Shown here one piece after another: positions 6,449 through 52,407 of a stretch of 64,000 nt of DNA (positions are counted from its first letter, which is position 1; each line of letters starts with the position of its first letter). The notes below the pieces were generated by a model. The model did no database searches. It worked only from the letters and a program-made list of their open reading frames with translations, and was not told the origin of the DNA. Origin of the DNA: a virus; UHGV virus genome UHGV-1363143; one strand, 5' to 3'. The translations under genes were made by a program, and so were the position numbers.

Positions 6449-6788
6449 TATAAGAACTATATAAGTCTTGTATCATTTCATTTTCTTCATCAGGTCGAGG
6501 ATCATACTTCCCAGCAACCTTTCTGTCTAGAATAGTGCTTCCTAACATTTGTCTAGTTGCATCTCGAAGCATTCTCTTATAATCAGCTTCACTTTGAGCA
6601 GCATTGATTCTTGAGTAATCCCATGTTTCTTCTTTCTGTTTATCTTTCAATTCCTTATAAACAGTGGCTTTTATTCTAACTCCATCTACATCATCTATGT
6701 AGTAGTAGTCACCTGGTCCTATCAGTTCACCTGATACATCACACTTCATTAACTCATTAAAGCGAGTGTTTCTTTTTAACCATAACAT
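6426..6788 (-). CDS. hypothetical protein
   Basis: 120-aa ORF in the operon frame; no recognisable motif. Confidence 0.35.
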   Translation of the reverse strand: MLWLKRNTRFNELMKCDVSGELIGPGDYYYIDDVDGVRIKATVYKELKDKQKEETWDYSRINAAQSEADYKRMLRDATRQMLGSTILDRKVAGKYDPRPDEENEMIQDLYSSYNGGVSND

Positions 6789-6855
6789 TTTTTGTCCTCC
6801 TTCAATGTAATTTATATCATACTATAAATTATGTTTTATTTTGCAATTTAAGCTA

Positions 6856-6950
6856 CAATATATATTACGTTGTATATCATAATATATATTACATTTAATA
6901 TAACAACATATATTAGATTATAAAATGCAATATATAATATGTTTCCTATT
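6856..6950. repeat. array of about four imperfect 22-24 bp AT-rich direct repeats with core AATATATATTA (iteron or dif-like site)
   Basis: caatatatattacgttgtatat / cataatatatattacatttaatat / caacatatattagattataaaatg / gcaatatataatatg; 13/18 match to the central TATATA-TTA region of a Firmicute dif site as recalled from memory; the array lies beside a Xer-like recombinase gene. Confidence 0.45.
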
Positions 6951-7239
6951 AGCTTATATAATAGAAAAAACCCACAACTTAAATTAGTTGCAGGTCATTC
7001 AGGAGATTCGATTTTGTTATTTTCATGGTACATATTGAACAGTTTAATGTCATATTCAGGACTATGTACGTGGGAGCACCAACCGTTCAGTGCCCCCTAT
7101 ATTTACGGAGGTAATATATGAAAAAGAAAAACTGTAAGGGTAGGGAATACAATGGGTACAGGAGGTGTTTGTTCCATGTATCCCTGAGGAAGTTTTACAT
7201 TTATATATTATGTTATCTATGAATAATAGACTACTAATC

Positions 7240-7437
7240 TTAAAGTTTTTCAACAATTTTATTTAAGAAATTTGAAATTTCATCACATTCCAAAACTATA
7301 GAATTACATACATTCTTTTGATTATTTCCAACGTCTTCGGATAATTTAGCGAATGCAGTAGATATTCTATTTAGTGTTTTTATATATTCATTTATTTTTT
7401 TATATTCAAGATTTTTTAATAAAATATACTTACTCAT
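7240..7437 (-). CDS. hypothetical small protein
   Basis: 65-aa ORF immediately downstream of the recombinase gene. Confidence 0.3.
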   Translation of the reverse strand: MSKYILLKNLEYKKINEYIKTLNRISTAFAKLSEDVGNNQKNVCNSIVLECDEISNFLNKIVEKL

Positions 7438-7475
7438 ATTGCATTCCTCCTAGTGTATTTACTATATTAATACAC

Positions 7476-7503
7476 ATAAAAAAAGCACTAATACAATAGT
7501 GCT
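7476..7503 (-). terminator. rho-independent terminator after the recombinase gene
   Basis: stem agcacta/tagtgct with a 6-nt loop, followed by TTTTTTTAT on the minus strand. Confidence 0.55.
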
Positions 7504-7506
7504 TAA

Positions 7507-8472
7507 TTAATAATTTAATGGATTTAATTTAACAGTTTCTCTTAATTGCTCTTCATCAACATGAGTATATATTTGAGTAGTCGCAACACTTTCATGCCCT
7601 AAGATAAGCTGTAAGCTTCTAATATCAGCTCCATTTTTATACATTAGGGTAGCAGCAGTATGTCTTAGTTTATGAACAGAATACTTCTGTGATAATCCAG
7701 CTTTCTCTAAAGCATTGTTTACAATGTCTTCGACAGCCCTTTTACTTATTCTTCTTTTCTGTTCACTAATAAATAATGCATCCTTACTATCTTCTTTAAT
7801 TTCTTTCTCTATCTTTTTTCTAACCTTTTTATAGCTTTTTATAGCATCTAAGCAAGCATCATTCAGATAGACAAATCTCTGTTTATTACCTTTACCAGTT
7901 ACAACAAGAGTGTCACCTTTAATAGAAGATATATTGATTCCACACAGTTCAGATAATCTCATTCCAGTGTTAAGAAAAACAGTAATAATACATCTATCTC
8001 TTATTGTGTTTCTGCTATCAACTGAATTTATCAGTGTTCTGCTTTCTAAAACAGTTAGATAGATAGGTAATTTCTTTCTAATCTTTGGACTCTCAAGTTC
8101 GGTCCCTAAATCATAATCCAGGTATTTAGCTTTATTATGACAATATTTAAAGAAAGACTTTAGGCAAGCTACCTTTCTAGCTCTTGTAGTTCCTTCATTC
8201 TTTCTGTTATTTTCAAGATATTCTAAAAAACTATAAATATCAGCTAAGTCTATTTCTTTAAGAAAAGAAATATCTACATCCATAATAGAGATCTCGTGGA
8301 AAGGAGTAATTTCATCAACTTTGCCATAATATATTTTTAAAAATCTAAAAAATAAAATCAAATCATTCTTATAAGCATCTACAGTTTGCTTACTTGCACC
8401 TCTAATAGAAGAGAGGTAGCTTAAATAACCTTTAATTACTTTTGGGACATTGGTTTTTGGCTTGCGTATCAA
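7507..8472 (-). CDS. tyrosine site-specific recombinase, XerC/XerD-like (integrase or resolvase)
   Basis: C-terminal catalytic region HKLRHTAATLMYKNGADIRSLQLILGHESVATTQIYTHV (R..H..Y of tyrosine recombinases, very Xer-like); N-terminal SAM-like domain; 321 aa. Confidence 0.85.
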   Translation of the reverse strand: MIRKPKTNVPKVIKGYLSYLSSIRGASKQTVDAYKNDLILFFRFLKIYYGKVDEITPFHEISIMDVDISFLKEIDLADIYSFLEYLENNRKNEGTTRARKVACLKSFFKYCHNKAKYLDYDLGTELESPKIRKKLPIYLTVLESRTLINSVDSRNTIRDRCIITVFLNTGMRLSELCGINISSIKGDTLVVTGKGNKQRFVYLNDACLDAIKSYKKVRKKIEKEIKEDSKDALFISEQKRRISKRAVEDIVNNALEKAGLSQKYSVHKLRHTAATLMYKNGADIRSLQLILGHESVATTQIYTHVDEEQLRETVKLNPLNY

Positions 8473-18365: not shown

Positions 18366-18777
18366 TAGCTAAGTGCTCGCCATTTAATACTTCTCCTTTA
18401 TACCTTATTAGATTCTTTAAATCATAATCATAACTATCTAGAACCTTGGAGATTTCTATTACTTTTACAAAGACTGCATTCATTGATCTAGTATTCACTT
18501 GGACAATATCTAAAACTGAAATATCTTTCATACACTCACCTCCTTAAAGATAATGTCTATATATTTTTACATTGCTCCAAAATTCTATATATGAAATCTC
18601 ATCAAGGAACTTTTTAGTAAAATCATTTATTTCATTAAAGGGTAACGGTATTTTATCAATAATTAATTGGGCATCTATATTGCTGGAGTCTAGTAATTTA
18701 ATACCTTCTCCAGCAACTATGCAATCCCATCTTTTATCTAAAACTTGTACATAATTCACTTCTCTTATTGTCATTTT

Positions 18778-30773: not shown

Positions 30774-31220
30774 CTATCTTACTGACACTGAACCACCAGC
30801 ATCTATGTCTCCTTTATGAGATCCACTTATAATTACTGAACCTCCACAGTCTATATTTCCTGTAACATCTCCTTTGGCTGTAACACTACCGCCACAATCA
30901 ATGTATCCTCCTAATTTGCCACCTATAGTTACACTACCACCGCAATCAATACCATTTATCACATCGCCTGTGACTTCTACTGAACCATTGCATTGAATAC
31001 TTTCTACATTACCTTCAATGATTACGTTTATGATTGTATTGCTGTTAATTCCATCAATATCATTGATTTCTTTTCCATCAACAATAATCTTACCATTACT
31101 AATGGATACATTATTGCCTGCAACACTAATTGTTTTGCCATTAATAGATACTTTATGCATATTTCCATTGCTAATAATACATTGACTATTTCCATTTATA
31201 AAATTCTTAAAAAAGCCCAT
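30774..31220 (-). CDS. beta-helical repeat protein (bactofilin-like ~17-aa repeats)
   Basis: repeated (G)xIDCGGSV(T/I) units: IDCGGSVTIGGKLGGYIDCGGSVTAKGDVTGNIDCGGSVIISGSHKGDIDAGGSVSV; Gly- and Val-rich; 148 aa. Confidence 0.45.
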   Translation of the reverse strand: MGFFKNFINGNSQCIISNGNMHKVSINGKTISVAGNNVSISNGKIIVDGKEINDIDGINSNTIINVIIEGNVESIQCNGSVEVTGDVINGIDCGGSVTIGGKLGGYIDCGGSVTAKGDVTGNIDCGGSVIISGSHKGDIDAGGSVSVR

Positions 31221-31468
31221 TAATTTTCTTTCCCTTCGAATATACTTTCTAGTCTAGGAACTGAATCTATCATTGCTTCTTCAAAATCAACTAAGTGTTC
31301 TAACTCTAGAGGGATTGAGCCACTTAATATAGTTCCAACTAAAGCAAAGAATTCATGTCCAAATTCTTCTGGATCTTGATCTGTATTGAAGTATAAATCA
31401 TAAAAAAGTTGAATTAATATTTCCTTTTCTTCAGCTGTTAAATCTGTATACACTGTTCTATTTCCCAT
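31220..31468 (-). CDS. hypothetical acidic protein
   Basis: 82-aa ORF. Confidence 0.3.
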   Translation of the reverse strand: MGNRTVYTDLTAEEKEILIQLFYDLYFNTDQDPEEFGHEFFALVGTILSGSIPLELEHLVDFEEAMIDSVPRLESIFEGKEN

Positions 31469-31479
31469 TGCTATTCCTC

Positions 31480-31698
31480 CTAATATTTATGTAAATCTGA
31501 ATTCATTATGTCACATAAATATATTTCTGAATTATTTTCTTTAAGGATTTCGCCATCTTTAATTATAGCTGCGCAATCATCAACTCTTTCAATATTATAA
31601 TTTGAATGACATTTATCTATTGCTTCACTTAAATTAGAAGCTTCAACTTCCATATCTATTGATTTTATAATCAATCCTTTTAATTGATATTTAGGCAT
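31480..31698 (-). CDS. hypothetical protein
   Basis: 72-aa ORF. Confidence 0.3.
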   Translation of the reverse strand: MPKYQLKGLIIKSIDMEVEASNLSEAIDKCHSNYNIERVDDCAAIIKDGEILKENNSEIYLCDIMNSDLHKY

Positions 31699-31844
31699 TA
31701 TTCATCTTCCTCCTCTAATTCCTCTCTACATTGAGTAAAGTATTCTGTAACTAGATCATCTATCTTTGTTAATATATCTCTATCCTTTGAACCAGAAGAT
31801 ATTAATAATTCATTAATTTGTGATAATACGTCATGTGGATCCAT

Positions 31845-32414
31845 TTATTTCACCTCATATTTTCCTATAGTTATTTCGACTAAATCATATTCATCTTGCA
31901 AAATATAACTATATATTTTTTCATTTGCATTTAATTTTTCTTCATCTTTATATTCAGATTGTCCAAATTCTTTTTGAGCTTTGTCTCTAATTTCTATTGC
32001 TTTTTCATAAGCTTTTGTAAAATCAGTTGTGATTAAGTGAATATTACTACCAATTTCACATTGATTATTCATATATCTATAATCTTCTTTAACTACAAAT
32101 ACACCAATATTATCAATTTCATCGGAAGTTAATTCGAAGATTTTTTCTTGTCCCTCTCCATAAACGTAATGTTTATAAATAGCGTCATTATTATCAATAT
32201 CTTCTTCTAATGAATGAACTATCCATTCTTCAATTTGCTCATCTGTTACATCTGGTGAGTCTCCTATTAAACAATCTTCCTTATTGTATGCCCATTCCTT
32301 TTCGCTATCTAGACAGAACTTTCTAGCTTCATCTAAATTTAAAAATATTCTTGTAGAATGCTCTGCTGCTTCCTCTAAATCTGTCCAAATTATATTGACT
32401 GCATATGCTTTCAT
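31845..32414 (-). CDS. hypothetical acidic protein
   Basis: 189-aa ORF. Confidence 0.35.
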   Translation of the reverse strand: MKAYAVNIIWTDLEEAAEHSTRIFLNLDEARKFCLDSEKEWAYNKEDCLIGDSPDVTDEQIEEWIVHSLEEDIDNNDAIYKHYVYGEGQEKIFELTSDEIDNIGVFVVKEDYRYMNNQCEIGSNIHLITTDFTKAYEKAIEIRDKAQKEFGQSEYKDEEKLNANEKIYSYILQDEYDLVEITIGKYEVK

Positions 32415-45390: not shown

Positions 45391-46452
45391 TTAAATAAGA
45401 TTTTTGTTTATATAATCCATTATTGTATTTAACCTTTGATTATAATTACCGCCAACTTCAACAATTTTATCTTCAAATCCTCTTTCGATATACATATGTT
45501 TAAGTCTTTGGTGTAATTTTTCTCTTTTTTCTTGGTCGCCGTTAAGTCTTTGGCCATCTGATACCCACTCAACGTCTGGCTTAAGTAAAAATACTACATC
45601 ATATTTATCAGGATCTACACAAGCTTCTACTTGTGCATTTCTCTCACCCATATATAAAATGCTATAATATTGGGTAATAGTTGCATCTGTATCAAAGAAA
45701 CATAATTTATTAGCACATCTTAAAGCTTCGTAATCTTGCTCAACTTGTTGATGAGCAATTCTAGAAAAGTCTTGAGTAGTAAATATCTCCTCATTTCCTC
45801 CAAGGAATCTTTGAGCATAATATCTACCTACTTCTTCACTCCAAGAGGTGTGATATAATTTAGCCAATGATTTAGTTAAAGTAGTTTTCCCACAACTTTC
45901 ACTTCCAGCTATTAATACTTTCTTAGTAAAGAAAGGTCTTGCAGGTCCTAATATATGATCCCAATGTTTGATAGGATTGCTTCTAATTTCAGTAGCACTA
46001 ATGTTATAAGTAGTTCTCATTGGATCAAATAGATCTACCTTAGCATTAGGGAAATACTCTTCTAGCTTTTCTACATATTCATGCTCTCCACAAAAGAAAA
46101 CATCTATATTGTCTCCTACTGCTCCTTTCATTAGTTCAGCCCACATTGGCCATCCATTAGGATACTCAGGTATATTAGATTCATCTAATTTAACTACTTT
46201 GATGTGAGGCATATCTATAAGCTCTTGAGATAACCATTGTATTCTAAGGTTAACATTAATTTCAGGAATGCCTGATTCTTTACAGATTCTTCTGCTTCTT
46301 TCTATATTGTCACTTACTACTACATAAAGTTTTTGAACCTTTGTGGCAGCATTTAATATAGCTGTTAAATGTCCTCTATGTGGAGGAAGGAATTTACCAA
46401 AGTAAACTCCAACCTTAGGCATATCATTTAAATTGAAAATTGAACCACTCAT
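45391..46452 (-). CDS. nadR: bifunctional NMN adenylyltransferase / ribosylnicotinamide kinase (NadR-type, no HTH)
   Basis: NMNAT motif GKFLPPHRGHL (HxGH); C-terminal P-loop kinase AGSESCGKTT; 353 aa. Confidence 0.8.
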   Translation of the reverse strand: MSGSIFNLNDMPKVGVYFGKFLPPHRGHLTAILNAATKVQKLYVVVSDNIERSRRICKESGIPEINVNLRIQWLSQELIDMPHIKVVKLDESNIPEYPNGWPMWAELMKGAVGDNIDVFFCGEHEYVEKLEEYFPNAKVDLFDPMRTTYNISATEIRSNPIKHWDHILGPARPFFTKKVLIAGSESCGKTTLTKSLAKLYHTSWSEEVGRYYAQRFLGGNEEIFTTQDFSRIAHQQVEQDYEALRCANKLCFFDTDATITQYYSILYMGERNAQVEACVDPDKYDVVFLLKPDVEWVSDGQRLNGDQEKREKLHQRLKHMYIERGFEDKIVEVGGNYNQRLNTIMDYINKNLI

Positions 46453-47133
46453 TTATTTCACCTCTTTTATTTGAGCCTTTTTCCATGAATATAATCCAAA
46501 TATAGAATTGCATAGGTAAACTATCCACATAATTAATGTAGCCATCTCTCCTACACCATTTATTAAAGAGAATGCCCACATGATTATTGATACTACATTG
46601 ATAATAACCCATATCACCCATTGCTCCATAAATTGTTTAACCATTAATATCATTGCAATGATAGATAGAATTGTTGAAGTTGAATCTAAGAATGGTAGAT
46701 AATTACCTAAAGACTTTAAGAAGAATCCATAGAAAATAACTAAGGAAACTGATATTCCGACTAATCTAATTCTTCCTTCTGTGCTAAGACTTTTTGATTC
46801 TATTTCTCCATCATTCTCTTCCTTAGCTTTCTTCCACATATAAAGACCTATAAATTGCATAGGCAAGTAATATAACGCATTTAACATTACTTCTCCATAG
46901 AAGCTAGCTTGGTAAGATAAAATAGCATAAGTAGAAACATTAATAGCACCAAATAAATAATTTAATGACATTCTCTTAGCTACTAGGATTACAGATAAGA
47001 TACCTGTTAATGAAGATACAATCGCTAAGGGACTATCTCCCCAATAAAGGCTTAAACCTAGTGTAGATAATGTCGCAACTGTTACCCATAAAATTTCATA
47101 AAGCTTCCAGTTTTTAAATATTGTTTTGTTCAT
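46453..47133 (-). CDS. pnuC: nicotinamide riboside transporter PnuC
   Basis: multi-TM protein with PnuC-family motifs (EILWVTVATLS...NALYYLPMQFIGLYMWKK); 226 aa; stop codon abuts the nadR start. Confidence 0.8.
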   Translation of the reverse strand: MNKTIFKNWKLYEILWVTVATLSTLGLSLYWGDSPLAIVSSLTGILSVILVAKRMSLNYLFGAINVSTYAILSYQASFYGEVMLNALYYLPMQFIGLYMWKKAKEENDGEIESKSLSTEGRIRLVGISVSLVIFYGFFLKSLGNYLPFLDSTSTILSIIAMILMVKQFMEQWVIWVIINVVSIIMWAFSLINGVGEMATLIMWIVYLCNSIFGLYSWKKAQIKEVK

Positions 47134-47231: not shown

Positions 47232-47264
47232 ATTTATAAAAATAGAGACTGCTATGCAGTCCCT
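47232..47264 (-). terminator. rho-independent terminator overlapping the helicase stop codon
   Basis: stem agagactgc/gcagtccct with one mismatch, followed by TATTTTTAT on the minus strand. Confidence 0.45.
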
Positions 47265-49093
47265 TTAGCTAAACTCTTAATTAGCTCTAAATCATAATTT
47301 TCTTTTTTAGCAACAACTTTTAGTTGAATTTCATCCCAACTCTCTTGTGCTATTAGTTGATATACAAATACGTTATCATGAACGCTATCAGCTCTTTCTA
47401 GTCTACCATGTCTCTGTGTCTGAATAGCATAACTACCAGCTATATCATATTCAATTAGATATTTGCATTTAGATAAATTTAAACCTTCAGCTCCAGCATC
47501 AGATAACAATAATACCTTATAATCTGGATTATCTCTAAATTTATCATATACTTCAACACTTCTTTCTTGTGATGATAATGTTCCATTAACATATGCTATT
47601 TTAATGTTTTTATTGTATTTATGGATCCTCTCAGTTATAACGTGTTGCATTCTTTCAAATTTTGAAAATACAGCAACCTTTTCTCCTGATTCAACAATTT
47701 CTTCTATTAAATCCATAAATAAATCCATCTTAGGATTCTTCTTTGTTTTCACTACATACTTTTTAGCAAATTCAGAATCACTATCCTCTAAAAGCTTTGG
47801 TTCGTTTGCAATTTCTTGAGCAAATGTTTGTAGTGCTAATATTTGAGCTCCTATTTTTTGAAGCTCAGGATTTAATTTAGCTTCTAGCTCTGTTCTACAT
47901 TTAGATCTTATTGCGAAATCTTGTTCCTTCAATTCATCTAATTGTTGCATGATTGTATTATTCATATCATACTGTTCTTCTGTAAGTGTAACATACCTTT
48001 GAATGACCTGTAATTTAGGTAATTGATCACTTATTTCTTCTTTTGATTTAATCATAATATATGGTCCAATAGTTTTAGTAAGTTTATTGCCGTTACGCAC
48101 TCCTGCAATCCTGCCTCTCCCTGCCCATTTAATAAATTCAGATGAGAATTTACTCCATGAAGGAAATAAGTCTGGTTTAATAAATTTAAAAATTGAATAA
48201 ACGTTTTCAGGATTTTTTGTAATAGGAGTAGCTGTTGCTCCAACCTTTATTTTTGCTTGGAACTCTTGTAACGCTTTTGATCTTTTACTATCTTTTGAAC
48301 CTATCATGTGAATTTCATCAGCAAAGATAAAATCTAATTTCATTGAATGAAGTTGTTGACGAATAGTATCATCAAGTAAGGCTTCATAATTAACTACAAA
48401 CAAATCATGTCCTTCAAACTGTTCTTTAAACTTAGAGGATATCTTTTCTTCTAATCTTAAATTCTCAAGTTTAATATCACTGATTTTATCTTTGTCTTTT
48501 ATCTTGTCTAGTGTTTTAATTAACTTTTTATTCTTGTTAATTTTAGACTTTGTGTATGCTGAAATACTTGATGGCGATTCAACTGCTACAGCTTTTAAGT
48601 CACTAAACTTGCTAACTTCATTAACCCATTGAGTTTTTAATGAAGCTTTTACAACAATTAAGCCTTTTCCTGAAATCATTCCTCTTTCAGTGGCCTCGAT
48701 AAACATTCCTATTCCTGATGGAGTTTTACCAGCTCCACAAGGCAATACTAGTAAAGCATTATTATTATCAAGTACGAATTTAATAGCCTCTCTCTGATAT
48801 ATATATGGCTTTAATTTCATGGATAAGCCTATTTCATCAAGTGATTTATCGTATCTTCGTATTTTAGGTAAACTGTGTTCTACACTTATGTTTAAATAAC
48901 TATAAGCATTGATAAAAGATTGAAGATCTTCTTCATACAGTTCCCATTGTTTAGTGATAAAATTGAAGTGTACAAATGGATTGTACACAACAATATTTAA
49001 AAATTCACTAAGTTCAGTTTTTTTGCCCAAGAATTTCAACCTATATTTTCTAGAAATAACTCTTTCTATTTTTAATAGTTCCATAGGTTGCAT
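47252..49093 (-). CDS. SF2 DEAD/DEAH-box-type DNA helicase
   Basis: Walker A PCGAGKTPSG; FADEIHMIG (DExH); GATATP (motif III); C-terminal helicase domain (QTQRHGRLER); 613 aa. Confidence 0.75.
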   Translation of the reverse strand: MQPMELLKIERVISRKYRLKFLGKKTELSEFLNIVVYNPFVHFNFITKQWELYEEDLQSFINAYSYLNISVEHSLPKIRRYDKSLDEIGLSMKLKPYIYQREAIKFVLDNNNALLVLPCGAGKTPSGIGMFIEATERGMISGKGLIVVKASLKTQWVNEVSKFSDLKAVAVESPSSISAYTKSKINKNKKLIKTLDKIKDKDKISDIKLENLRLEEKISSKFKEQFEGHDLFVVNYEALLDDTIRQQLHSMKLDFIFADEIHMIGSKDSKRSKALQEFQAKIKVGATATPITKNPENVYSIFKFIKPDLFPSWSKFSSEFIKWAGRGRIAGVRNGNKLTKTIGPYIMIKSKEEISDQLPKLQVIQRYVTLTEEQYDMNNTIMQQLDELKEQDFAIRSKCRTELEAKLNPELQKIGAQILALQTFAQEIANEPKLLEDSDSEFAKKYVVKTKKNPKMDLFMDLIEEIVESGEKVAVFSKFERMQHVITERIHKYNKNIKIAYVNGTLSSQERSVEVYDKFRDNPDYKVLLLSDAGAEGLNLSKCKYLIEYDIAGSYAIQTQRHGRLERADSVHDNVFVYQLIAQESWDEIQLKVVAKKENYDLELIKSLAKGTA

Positions 49094-49101
49094 TCCTCCA
49101 T

Positions 49102-49941
49102 TTAGTCATGAACTCCAATTATATCTAGCATTTCTTTACAGATATTAACTGTTTCTAGCTCAAGATCGTATTTTTCGCAGATATAAATAGCTGATTTTCT
49201 GCTCAACAGGTCTTTAGCCAACGAATCTCTTTCTTCTTTATCTATATAGCATTGTTCATCTAAAGAATCATATAGTAATTTAAATTTCTTACCAAGTCTT
49301 TTGTATACCTTAGGAATATACGATTTTGATACCTCTGCTTCCTCGGCTATTTCCGCTTGGCTTTTCCCTTTTATTTTAAGAAGATAAACTCTTCTTTCTT
49401 TATCTGTGCAGGCATCTATTAGTTCTAATAAAAGGTAAATAAAGTCAAGCAAGAACTCTTGAAATACTACTACATCATCTATATCACAATTATCTCCCAC
49501 TAAATTCAAGAGTTCTATACTTTTCTTATCCGAAGAAGGATTAGGAATTATAGAATCTAGCGAATAATTCATCTCATTTCTTAATATGTTATTTTTTTGA
49601 GCCTCTAAAGAACGTTTAATCATTCCAAGCTTGGACTCACATACTATAAATATCCATGATGACAATCCAGATCTATCTAGATCACATTTATTTACATTTT
49701 TAAATATGTGCGCCCATAGCTCATTATGCATATCTTCTAGATCGTATTGACCTTTACTCAAAGTATTAATGGCTGGATACCACTTTTTAGATATATCCCA
49801 CACTAATCTATCATACTCTTCATAAAATATAGTTGTTTCCGGTTCTTTACCATCAATAACACACTTCAGAAATTCTTTATTGCTATTAATATTTTTTAAA
49901 TTCATAATTCTCCTCCCCATTTTACAGACACTATTCTGCAT
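49102..49941 (-). CDS. sigma-70-family RNA polymerase sigma factor (regions 2 and 4)
   Basis: region-2-like DLEDMHNELWAHIF...SSWIFIV; region-4 HTH ERRVYLLKIKGKSQAEIAEEAEVSKSYIPKVYKRLGKK; 279 aa. Confidence 0.6.
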   Translation of the reverse strand: MQNSVCKMGRRIMNLKNINSNKEFLKCVIDGKEPETTIFYEEYDRLVWDISKKWYPAINTLSKGQYDLEDMHNELWAHIFKNVNKCDLDRSGLSSWIFIVCESKLGMIKRSLEAQKNNILRNEMNYSLDSIIPNPSSDKKSIELLNLVGDNCDIDDVVVFQEFLLDFIYLLLELIDACTDKERRVYLLKIKGKSQAEIAEEAEVSKSYIPKVYKRLGKKFKLLYDSLDEQCYIDKEERDSLAKDLLSRKSAIYICEKYDLELETVNICKEMLDIIGVHD

Positions 49942-51181
49942 ATCTATACATATATTGCTTGTCTATTTCTGTAACAAATCTCGACTCTTGAGTCCTGATA
50001 TAGCTTCCTTGCTTAAGCGTATAAATAGGCCTTGTAATAAAAAGGAGTTTTTTTGCTCGTGTAACGGCAACATACATTAACCTTCGTTCTTCTTCGTAAT
50101 CTGCCTCTGTAGTTGCTCTATATGAAGGTATTACTCCCTCATTTGATCCTGCAATAATAACAATATTCCATTCCAATCCTTTACTGCTATGCATAGTTAA
50201 TAACTGTACGCAGTTCTCTTCATCCTGATTTTGTTCTGCAATAGTGCTATCTAAATTTATATTGTCGGATAATTCTTCCATACTTTCAAAGTGAGTGGCT
50301 AATTCTATTAGCTCTTGAATATTTTCTATTCTATCGTCAGCAATGTTTTTCTTTTCACTCTCTCTGATATAAGGAATATAACCTGTTATTCTTAGCATAG
50401 TCTCTATTGCAATGTCTGGAGTGTTAGTCTCCATTTCTACAGATAGTTCCCCTACTATATCAAGAAAATCTTTAGCACTTGACTTTGCTTTTCCTGTTAA
50501 ATTTATTTGCTCTAATGCTTCAATTAAATTACATGAATTTGTTTTTGCAAAGTCAATTATTTTCTCGACTGTTTTGTCTCCTAGTCCTCTTTTTGGTGTG
50601 TTTATTGCTCTTGAGAAAGCAATTGTATCATTAGGGTTTATTATTAACCTAAAATAAGAAATTATATCTTTAATTTCTTTTCTACTATAAAAGTTGGTTC
50701 CTCCTACAATTTTATAAGGAATTCTATATTTAAGAAGAGCATCTTCTATTTGTCTAGATAGATAGTTCATTCTATATAAAATAGCTATATCACTGTACTT
50801 GTAACCATATTTTTTAACTGATAATTCAATTAATTTAACTATTCTTGCTGATTCTGCCATAGGATCTTTTTCAGGAAAAAATATAATTGGATTACCTTTT
50901 TCATTATTAGATCTTAAGCTTTTTTCTACTAGCTGTTTATTATTACTTATTAAACTTTTAGAAGCGTCAACTATCATTGAAGTACTTCTATAATTAGTAT
51001 TTAATAGATGTACTCTCATGCCAGTAAATATGTTTCTCATATTCATTACAGCTTCTATCTTAGCACCTCTAAAAGCATAAATGCTCTGGTCATTATCAGC
51101 AATCATACAAATATTTTGGTTTTCTCCTGTAAGAAGATATATTAATCTTAAATCCATTACAGAAGAATCATGACTCTCATC
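49931..51181 (-). CDS. UvrD/PcrA/Rep-family helicase, exon 2 (begins in motif II DESHDSS; includes motif III and the 2A/2B domains)
   Basis: the frame is open upstream of the called Met: ...DESHDSSVMDLRLIYLLTGENQNICMIADNDQSIYAFRGA aligns with UvrD DEFQDTN...LRLL...VGDDDQSIYGWRGA; 1251 nt in one frame. Confidence 0.75.
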   Translation of the reverse strand, partial: DESHDSSVMDLRLIYLLTGENQNICMIADNDQSIYAFRGAKIEAVMNMRNIFTGMRVHLLNTNYRSTSMIVDASKSLISNNKQLVEKSLRSNNEKGNPIIFFPEKDPMAESARIVKLIELSVKKYGYKYSDIAILYRMNYLSRQIEDALLKYRIPYKIVGGTNFYSRKEIKDIISYFRLIINPNDTIAFSRAINTPKRGLGDKTVEKIIDFAKTNSCNLIEALEQINLTGKAKSSAKDFLDIVGELSVEMETNTPDIAIETMLRITGYIPYIRESEKKNIADDRIENIQELIELATHFESMEELSDNINLDSTIAEQNQDEENCVQLLTMHSSKGLEWNIVIIAGSNEGVIPSYRATTEADYEEERRLMYVAVTRAKKLLFITRPIYTLKQGSYIRTQESRFVTEIDKQYMYRYAE

Positions 51182-51762
51182 CTTTTTTGTAAATCTAATT
51201 AATAATATAATGTTTCATCTTTTTAGAATAATCTCCTTTCAACACGAACTTACGTTCTTATCATATTTTAGCATATTTCCAATATATACTCAATAATAAA
51301 TACATTTAACAAAAGTATTTATTATTCACAAAAAAAGCGTAACATTAACAATAATATTAGATTTTTCTTACTTTCGCAAGTGTGGACTATATCATCATCT
51401 CATAATTACTAATTTTAGCCCTATTGCTAGTTCTAGTTTTATGAGAATGCCTCTTGTTTCACGCAGAGTTACCTTTCGGCACTTTGCTAGTCTCTGAACC
51501 TTCTTCCACCCTGGCATATAATTATATGTTACATTGGAAGCTTGGCTGCTGATTCCCCATTATTAAGGTCCTTAGCACCATCATATTTAATGATAGCTTT
51601 TATTTCAGCTTAGACTATCCTTAGTTATTTTTTCTGCCTTTCGGCGACATTCACGCTTGTCCTTACGGACTACGTTGTAGTTAACTTAGGCTTTAGGGAT
51701 TGTTCCAGCAATTAAAGAGGTACGCACACTACGTCACCGTAATATGGGCCGATGAGTTCAGC
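51182..51762 (-). ncRNA. group I self-splicing intron (581 nt, ORF-less) interrupting motif II of the UvrD-like helicase gene
   Basis: R-like element GUUCAGAGACUAGCA (rc of 51486-51500) and S-like element GAUAUAGUCC (rc of 51384-51393) in the correct order; P8-like stem UCUCAUAA/UUAUGAGA; GAAA tetraloop hairpins (gccGAAAggc); upstream exon ends in U and the intron ends in G; local GC content above the surrounding DNA. Confidence 0.7.
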
Positions 51763-52407
51763 AACGATATATTGGTATTGTCTATTGATTTCAGATTTGA
51801 CTTCAGGGAATTGTTCTAACAATCTAACCGTCTTATAAATTAAATCATCAAAATCTACACAGTTATCTTGCATCATTCTGGAATGATAGAGTTGATAGAG
51901 TTCTGCGAATTGTCTTTCTATTGTATTGGTTGATTCTCTCAACGCTTGACTTGGACTTATTAGCTGACATTTATAATCTGATATTTTCCATAATACCTTA
52001 TCAGCTTCAAAATTGTAACCAGATGTTTTAATGATTTCTTTCATTAATTTCTTGCAATCTTCAGTATCGCATATACTAAAAGATTTAGTAAGTCCAATAT
52101 AATTTGCATATTTTCTTAAAAATCTACTGCATACACTATGGTATGTACCGACCATTATACTATTTGCTTCAGGTCCTATAGTAGCAGTTACTCTTTCTTT
52201 GATTTCCATAGCTGCTTTCTTAGTAAATGTAAATAATATAATTTTATCAGCCGGTATTCCGCTTTTAATCATGTTAGCTGTTCGAACTACTAAGGTAAAA
52301 GTCTTACCAGCTCCTGGACCAGCTATAACCATTGAAGGTCCATGAATATCTATTGCGGCTTCCTTTTGTTCATCATTAAGTCTATTAAATAATTCTGATA
52401 GTTCCAT
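51763..52407 (-). CDS. UvrD/PcrA/Rep-family helicase, exon 1 (Walker A through the start of motif II)
   Basis: MELSELFNRLNDEQKEAAIDIHGPSMVIAGPGAGKTFTLV...QYQYIV matches the UvrD N-terminus up to ...RYILV(DEFQDT). Confidence 0.75.

Follow-up and report, generated by a model that had tools for sequence, protein, structure and literature searches.

Why is a PcrA/UvrD-type helicase gene in a 64,000-nucleotide (nt) stretch of the virus genome UHGV-1363143 encoded as two blocks, with a gap between them that falls within one of its ATPase motifs? A preliminary description of this stretch (the window, whose positions serve as coordinates throughout) had proposed that a group I intron splits the gene in motif II, and that proposal has stood up well. 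We consider it very probable that a group I intron, probably of subgroup IA, occupies the gap between the codons for Ala216 and Asp217, directly ahead of the catalytic DE in motif II (Walker B). The case is built on a covariance-model match, covariation among related introns, pairings at the splice sites and the restoration of the open reading frame (ORF), and from these we infer catalysis and its timing. The intron as we place it (51182..51759) is 578 nt long, has no endonuclease ORF and ends in G51182 (omega-G); the helicase gene, the intron and the features of its tail are all on the minus strand.

The two blocks are seen in the ORFs that run from 52407 and over 51181..49931, as had been described. 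Exon 1 (51760..52407), delimited from the ORF listing and the alignment of homologues, encodes amino acids (aa) 1-216 with motifs Q, I and Ia, up to ...RQYQYIVA. Its ORF (52407..51712) runs 15 codons beyond the 5' splice site into the gap and stops at a UAA (51712..51714) inside the intron, in J3/4; the exon-1 ORFs of relatives are similar in length, 231 aa in most. Exon 2 (49931..51181) encodes aa 217-632, the first of them being DESHDSS (motif II); its frame stays open from 51181 (DESHDSSVMDLRL...) as far as the stop codon, which it includes, at 49931. The blocks had been called in-frame, which holds after splicing but not before it, as 578 is not divisible by 3. The joined protein matches the Pfam domains UvrD-helicase (PF00580, E=1.4e-68) and UvrD_C (PF13361, E=3.7e-70), and matches structures of PcrA, UvrD and Rep with E=1e-98 to 5e-117; the alignment to the PcrA structure 1pjr (E=4.8e-117) covers residues 5-623, end to end. 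The SF1A helicase motifs GAGKT (motif I, GxGKT) and DESHD (motif II, DExx) are present, and with both Pfam domains they place the protein among the UvrD/PcrA/Rep SF1A helicases. The spliced gene would, on this evidence, encode a single continuous PcrA/UvrD-type SF1 helicase of 632 aa, the continuity that the preliminary description had suggested checking. None of the isolates in the phage collection has a helicase that is more than about 38% identical to this one, and megablast with the locus found no match in 50,697 phage records.

The covariance search with Intron_gpI that had also been suggested was made over the 951 nt from 51000 to 51950. It gives a match to Rfam RF00028 (Intron_gpI) at 51769..51365 on the minus strand, with 53.7 bits and E=1.1e-12, which covers model positions 1-253 of 253 and exceeds the curated gathering score of 50. 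This is the only Rfam match in that stretch. Scans of the whole 64-kb window with Rfam, in gathering and in E-value mode, gave no match; since the shorter search scores above the gathering threshold, these misses are filter losses and not absence of the element. Standard Rfam scanning of long contigs can thus miss an above-threshold group I intron, and similar introns may hide in windows that have been scanned whole. The gap had been called ORF-less, and it has indeed no ORF of homing-endonuclease size, the longest in sense being 40 aa (51517..51395) and lying within the ribozyme core. It had also been called richer in GC than its surroundings. This is true of the ribozyme core (39.9% for 51762..51365) but not of the tail (19.7% for 51364..51182); the entire gap has 33.6% and the window 30.2%.

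A much more detailed picture comes from ten related loci (L001, L008-L011 and L131-L135), which share 63-97% amino-acid identity with the window in exon 2. Each of the ten carries an insert of 443-524 nt precisely at YIVA|DESHDSS, with exon 1 ending in GCU and the insert in G, and the terminal G is found in 11 of 11 family introns. The 11 homologous introns (window plus ten relatives) were aligned (alignment A3), and RNAalifold on A3 independently gave P1, P2, P3, P4, P5 with a branched extension of about 135 nt, P6/6a/6b, P7.1 and P8; the P7 pseudoknot, the outer P6 pairs and P9 were added to this model. Standard pairs are formed in 96.0% of 1111 cells (shuffled mean 83.8%, slid partners 35-42%). 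Changes on both sides occur in 56 of the 104 pairs against a shuffled mean of 33, and the covariation score of 0.424, compared with 0.189, was reached by none of 500 shuffles. P5, the P5 extension, P6a and P7.1 covary at nearly every pair, and P4 and P7 are almost invariant and hence uninformative on covariation.

The R-like and S-like elements, the P8-like stem and the GNRA hairpins that had been noted in the gap could all be located in this core. Reading from the 5' side, the P2 hairpin (51725..51746) has 9 base pairs (bp) and is 100% paired with 2 pairs changed on both sides. The P3 5' strand CCUCUU (51715..51720) pairs with AAGAGG (51455..51450), again with 2 pairs changed on both sides and 97% paired. 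The P4 and P5 domain (51547..51710), taken from RNAalifold and the pair counts, is closed by UGCUGG (51710..51705) with UCAGCA (51552..51547); P4 encloses P5 and its branched extension (helices 4-13), in which most pairs covary. The P6/P6a/P6b hairpin domain follows (51499..51545), with 6 of 6 pairs of helix 15 changed on both sides. The P7 5' strand G(A)GACUA with its bulged A (51488..51494) is contained in the R-like element GUUCAGAGACUAGCA (51499..51485), and pairs with UAGUCC (51389..51384) of the S-like element GAUAUAGUCC (51393..51384) to form a pseudoknot with P3 that is 97% paired. Between P7 and P3' lies P7.1 (51463..51487), a hairpin of 25 nt with a bulge, where 8 of 9 pairs (helix 18) are changed on both sides; an extra hairpin P7.1 in this position is the hallmark of subgroup IA. 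P8 (51396..51449), supported by the alignments and by its fold (z=-4.3), has the stem CAU(U)CUCAU / AUGAGAUG. Its hairpin is lengthened by a 37-nt insertion (51440..51404) that is absent from the ten relatives, including L001 with exons 95% identical, and occurs nowhere else in the window. The core ends with the P9 hairpin CUUGC-GAAA-GUAAG (51367..51380). GNRA tetraloops are found in P2 (GUGA), the P5 extension (GUAA and GAAA), P7.1 (GAAA) and P9 (GAAA).

Where exactly does the intron begin? The preliminary description had given a gap of 581 nt, a join YIV|DESHDSS and a product of about 631 aa, and here it has to be corrected. A search of 5.8 billion proteins supplied uninterrupted homologues, among them P0001 (632 aa, 70% identity), P0003, P0006, P0007 and many at 45-50%, together with about twenty proteins of 406-444 aa that are exon 2 alone. 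In the alignment of 13 sequences, made of the spliced window protein and 12 uninterrupted homologues that are 46-75% identical, the consensus is Y-x-Y-I-V-A-D-E-x-H-D-S-S, with D217 and E218 invariant and Ala216 in at least 90%. Because the uninterrupted homologues keep Ala216, the Ala codon GCU (51762..51760) was assigned to exon 1 as its final codon. Exon 1 therefore ends at U51760, the 5' splice-site U, the intron is 51759..51182, and the 632-aa product with the junction YIVA|DESHDSS aligns gap-free with the intron-less homologues across this region. The predicted ligated junction is CAAUAUAUCGUUGCU|GAUGAGAGUCAUGAU, that is GUUGCU|GAUGAG. An exon ending in U and an intron ending in G had been described; the terminal G is indeed G51182, but the U is U51760 and not U51763.

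This placement is also supported by the pairings of the intron with both exons. P1 (51748..51762) consists of the exon G-C-U and the intron G-A (51762..51758) paired with UCGGC (51752..51748), and was recovered independently by RNAalifold. The splice-site wobble U51760·G51750 is an invariant U·G in 11 of 11 sequences, and the first intron pair covaries (G-C in 4 sequences, A-U in 5). The internal guide sequence CUCAUCGGC (51748..51756) uses its GGC to pair with the last bases of exon 1 and its CUCAUC to pair with the exon-2 GAUGAG (51181..51176), the latter being a P10 of 6 bp that is 98.5% paired across the family, so that the guide gives nine contiguous pairs across the ligated junction. Taken together, P10 and the exon part of P1 have 99% of their cells paired, compared to 27-57% in slid controls. 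In L010 and L134 a synonymous exon change from GAG to GAA is matched by a change from C to U in the guide, turning a C-G pair into U-A. The minimum-free-energy fold of the whole RNA also closes with the P10 pairing (z=-4.5).

The boundary given earlier, with splicing after U51763, an intron 51762..51182, the join YIV|DESHD and a protein of 631 aa, can be weighed against these pairings. U51763, too, is a U, its join keeps the frame, and in the window sequence an 8-bp alternative P1 can be drawn by hand, CGUU|GCUG with CGGUGACG (intron nt 21-28). However, that P1 uses the 3' half of P2, which is itself fully paired with compensatory changes, and it breaks in relatives with a different P2 loop, such as L011 (CCGCAAGG). 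The U51763 boundary also has no P10, where the GCU site has its nine guide pairs, and it deletes the near-invariant Ala216; HMMER opens a 1-residue gap exactly at the YIV|DESHD junction ('yi.vde') in both printed alignments. We rejected this 5' splice site, which we regard as extremely improbable, since its P1 needs the 3' half of P2, it has no P10 and a conserved residue is lost.

With splicing at U51760, the steps can be laid out following the known chemistry of group I introns. The helicase gene would be transcribed as a single pre-mRNA, in which the ribozyme would fold to P1-P9 with the P3/P7 pseudoknot. The guide would hold the exon-1 end GCU in P1 through the U51760·G51750 wobble, and exogenous guanosine, bound in P7, would attack the 5' splice site. 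The same guide would next pair with the exon-2 GAUGAG as P10, and the freed 3'-OH of U51760 would attack after the terminal G51182, ligating the exons into an mRNA that would encode the 632-aa helicase ...YQYIVA-DESHDSS.... Ribosomes would not run through the intron core, because the exon-1 frame stops at the UAA in J3/4.

Several observations weigh against our interpretation and should be kept in view. The Rfam score is just 3.7 bits over its threshold and was lost to the filters in both whole-window scans. The structure was derived in part from A3 itself, which inflates the percentage of paired cells and affects the two-sided changes less. P1 is short, with 3 exon bp and 2 intron bp, and P9 is poorly supported in the relatives, where it is 64% paired, a value that comes partly from the alignment. 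P7.1 is a single hairpin that is readable as the P7.1/P7.1a of subgroup IA1, with no separate P7.2, and either IA1 or IA2 may apply. Additionally, the exact spliced protein, in its 632-aa or 631-aa form, is absent from a collection of 15 billion proteins, and a degenerate DNA pattern for the spliced junction had 0 matches in the JGI metagenome and IMG/VR contigs, with no cDNA either.

These last results bear on whether the gene is spliced at all. The helicase could be split naturally and produced as two polypeptides, or the gene could be dead, with a ribozyme-like insert that has stopped splicing; gene callers and the public annotation do list separate proteins of 231 and 408 aa, and no spliced product is on record in the collections searched. 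The details of the locus make this very improbable in our view. The start of exon 2 has neither a start codon nor a ribosome-binding site, and its first ATG (51157), which is 8 codons in and has no Shine-Dalgarno site, would lose the catalytic D-E. The called starts of exon 2 vary among relatives, giving proteins from 406 to 444 aa, and the break separates the beta-strand of one Walker B motif from its DE. The core has been kept by compensatory changes even where the exons are just 66-75% identical, and both exons have retained their P1 and P10 pairings with the intron. Both exons are open and conserved, with no frameshifts or stops, in all 11 intron-bearing alleles, which argues for a gene that is in use and hence must be spliced. 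Splicing of the helicase intron is thus our prediction from sequence comparison, and the practical consequence for annotation is one 632-aa PcrA/UvrD-type helicase instead of two 'helicase' ORFs.

Inteins, group II introns and IStrons also interrupt genes, and related helicases do carry inteins (P0008, P0033, P0045 and P0115), while IStrons combine an IA2 intron with an insertion at its 3' end (PMC3984707). We give such an element in this gap almost no chance. The gap is not an open frame, with its stop 15 codons in and a length that is not divisible by 3. In relatives the inteins are inserted about 35-50 residues further on, near motif III. The gap contains no ORF for a transposase or a reverse transcriptase, and Intron_gpI is the sole Rfam match; the IS200/IS605-type transposase genes that are embedded at the 3' end of IStrons have no counterpart in the 183-nt tail, which has no ORF. 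As an observation apart, the inteins of those four related helicases, which are about 950-1000 aa long, were recognized with Pfam PF14890 at a site corresponding to residues of about 250-267 of the window protein, in the DQSIY region of motif III. Across relatives the helicase gene is thus interrupted by two kinds of element at two ATPase motifs.

What then is the tail of the group I intron? This AT-rich 3' segment (51183..51366, 183 nt, about 20% GC), characterized by folding and by profile search, had been suggested to be a degraded homing-endonuclease remnant. In its most concrete form this would be the stump of an endonuclease gene after deletion, with promoter, ribosome-binding site and first codons left behind. 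There are sequences that could be read in this way: a promoter-like TTGAGT-17-TGcTAAAAT at 51293..51265, whose TGnTAAAAT-like element recurs in L001 and L008, and a Shine-Dalgarno-like GAAAGGAG (51240..51233) 14 nt upstream of the ATG of a mini-ORF, MKHYIIN* (51218..51195, 8 codons including the stop). Endonuclease ORFs are often found in the 3' peripheral loops of phage introns (PMC3984707), and sister genes of relatives have LAGLIDADG ORFs. However, promoter-like sites in the tail are no commoner than in shuffles, and the mini-ORF is just MKH* in L001, the 95%-identical relative. No ORF is present in the tail of any of the 11 family members, whose introns are 443-578 nt, and no intron-encoded endonuclease of the LAGLIDADG, GIY-YIG or HNH type was found in these 11 introns, all of at most 578 nt, so the family does not have the gene that characterizes a homing intron. 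With nhmmer the tail matches L001 only among about 140 loci, and whole-intron blastn against the 50,697 phage records matches nt 30-226 only. A search with a 5'-intron pattern for a family member that carries an endonuclease returned just a contig of the L001 type and a GC-rich chance match, L139.

The folding of the tail points to another account. Its fold is more stable than those of shuffles (z=-3.1), and it is closed by AAAUCUAAU (51364..51356) and AUUAGAUUU (51199..51191), which form a perfect stem of 9 bp, after which 8 nt remain before the terminal G; it also contains a GAAC-GUAA-GUUC hairpin. A long-range closing stem is found in most relatives' tails too, and tail lengths vary widely. 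This is what would be expected of an ordinary peripheral P9 extension, and the endonuclease remnant finds no support here; we would call it unlikely. The tail is read as a variable peripheral extension of P9, closed by its stem, that would bring the 3' splice site back to the core.

How has the intron been maintained? The longest contigs of four alleles reach 194-245 kb, and because of this length the hosts of the intron-bearing alleles are jumbo phages. They share the gene order AAA ATPase, DUF1257, DUF2997, helicase, a sigma-like protein of about 265 aa and SNF2 helicase. The identity of the intron core tracks that of the exons (Pearson r=0.86 over 55 non-independent pairs, with exon DNA down to 66-75% identical). 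This points to an intron that has predominantly been passed down vertically with the helicase gene in a jumbo-phage clade. Uninterrupted versions occur in the syntenic L005-L007, which encode P0001 and read gttgca|gatgag, and also in L002 (47% identity); the Ala216 codon is GCU wherever the intron is present (11 of 11 alleles), and GCA in P0001, which has none. In a neighbour-joining tree, which is crude and has no support values, the intron-bearing L132 falls outside the clade of P0001, P0003 and the other intron-bearing alleles, and at least one additional intron loss or gain is likely from this topology.

One could further imagine that an endonuclease-free ribozyme has long been kept at the Walker B codon of the helicase in one jumbo-phage clade because it has been put to use. 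Splicing might have been co-opted for timing helicase production, or the conserved promoter-like TGnTAAAAT element of the tail for driving transcription of exon 2 and the sigma-like and SNF2 genes, and the intron could also spread by 'collaborative homing' via a free-standing endonuclease elsewhere in the genome. We rate this scenario as very improbable. A scan of ten flanking proteins found no endonuclease domain. The 11-member family, with its rich covariation and no endonucleases, could serve studies of intron persistence and loss in jumbo phages.

Comparison with known introns shows what is familiar and what is new in this element. By blastn against the 50,697 phage records, nt ~30-226 of the intron (the P3-P6 part) have 70-75% DNA identity to introns from Herelleviridae and further phages, examples being Brochothrix A9, Staphylococcus Twort/K-like phages, Listeria LPJP1, Enterococcus phages, Klebsiella Miami and Vibrio USC-1; in Brochothrix A9 the match lies between the fragments of a split ribonucleotide-reductase gene. 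Like the helicase intron, the introns of the Herelleviridae and other Firmicute phages split conserved DNA-metabolism genes of large virulent phages. The present intron differs from those of the Herelleviridae in that its host gene is a PcrA/UvrD helicase and its host an uncultured phage of about 240 kb, and its P1-P2, P7.1-P9 and tail have no detectable DNA similarity to them. The introns of T4 td, nrdB and nrdD (sunY) are the textbook subgroup-IA phage group I introns. They share with the helicase intron the P1-P10 plan, P7.1 between P7 and P3', the U·G wobble, the terminal G, an early in-frame stop and insertion at a functionally critical codon. In contrast, the T4 introns carry or once carried the genes for I-TevI, I-TevII and I-TevIII, compared to 0 of 11 members of the helicase-intron family, and the helicase intron has a single P7.1 and no clear P7.1 plus P7.2.

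Phage group I introns are typically found in conserved codons of polymerases, ribonucleotide reductases and terminases, and ORF-less introns as well as collaborative homing with free-standing endonucleases have been described (PMC3984707). The gut 'Jug' jumbo phages have about 18 group I introns per genome, with splicing confirmed by metatranscriptomes; these introns are ORF-less, have a mean length of about 206 nt and interrupt genes for terL, nrdD and polymerases in Bacteroides phages of 360-402 kb (PMC12880540), whereas the helicase intron has 578 nt and is found in a helicase gene of a phage of about 240 kb and 30% GC. The RNA-polymerase intron of PhiPA3 encodes a nuclease that acts in phage competition (PMC11620839), unlike the helicase intron with no ORF. 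Jug, PhiPA3 and the present case have in common that group I introns break up essential genes of jumbo phages known from metagenomes or isolates, and inteins and free-standing endonucleases often accompany them. A survey of B. cereus reported a group II intron in a uvrD/rep helicase gene (PMC2504315), and in the papers that we searched no phage gene of the UvrD/PcrA type was reported to contain a group I intron. The target gene may thus be new for group I introns, in an element of a kind already known, and motif II of an SF1 helicase joins the conserved active-site codons that phage group I introns target. The helicase intron is a real but ordinary element, and it changes no concept.

The same class of intron is also present outside the helicase gene in other viral contigs. 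The closest non-helicase relative, at L091:3915-4164 (nhmmer E=6e-27), is ORF-less and about 250 nt long, and interrupts the gene for a type II topoisomerase at its Toprim motif, ...CDAD|..GNHI, in a viral contig of about 238 kb. The downstream SNF2-family helicase gene is broken up by LAGLIDADG-type ORFs in L009 (5616-8257) and L011 (5583-8224), and in L009 a second intron of the same sequence class lies within this gene at 7516-7675. In IMG/VR, L065 (204 kb) has five matches to the intron profile within 13 kb and L085 (198 kb) has three within 9.5 kb. Judging by these two contigs, some jumbo phages are densely populated by introns of the helicase-intron class. A 17-mer core pattern run on IMG/VR gave chance matches mixed with distant introns, and served only as search space for nhmmer. 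Within the window, nhmmer with the family profile found no other group I intron; a lead from an R/S-element pattern at 18501..18511 was negative in Rfam, as were the gaps 6650-7650 and 31050-32000.

In the public records, the exon-1 ORF with its 15 intron-derived codons stands as a 231-aa protein of its own, one example being DAV25099.1 ('MAG TPA: REP HELICASE [Caudoviricetes sp.]'). Exon 2 appears there as a 408-aa 'PcrA' from an internal Met, and the intron is unannotated. Of the neighbouring genes, the one directly downstream (49102..49941, minus strand) overlaps the helicase stop codon by 11 nt and encodes a 279-aa protein, with a counterpart of about 265-270 aa in all syntenic relatives. 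Its matches to sigma-70 region 2 and region 4 are weak and below the Pfam cut-offs, and it is possibly a phage sigma-like factor. The SNF2-family helicase gene of the window (47252..49093, 613 aa) is uninterrupted. Further along, 45391..47133 on the minus strand encodes a PnuC-type nicotinamide mononucleotide transporter (PF04973, 1e-46) adjoining a NadR-like protein with AAA_28 and a cytidylyltransferase-like domain, a pair that looks like a phage NAD+ salvage module.

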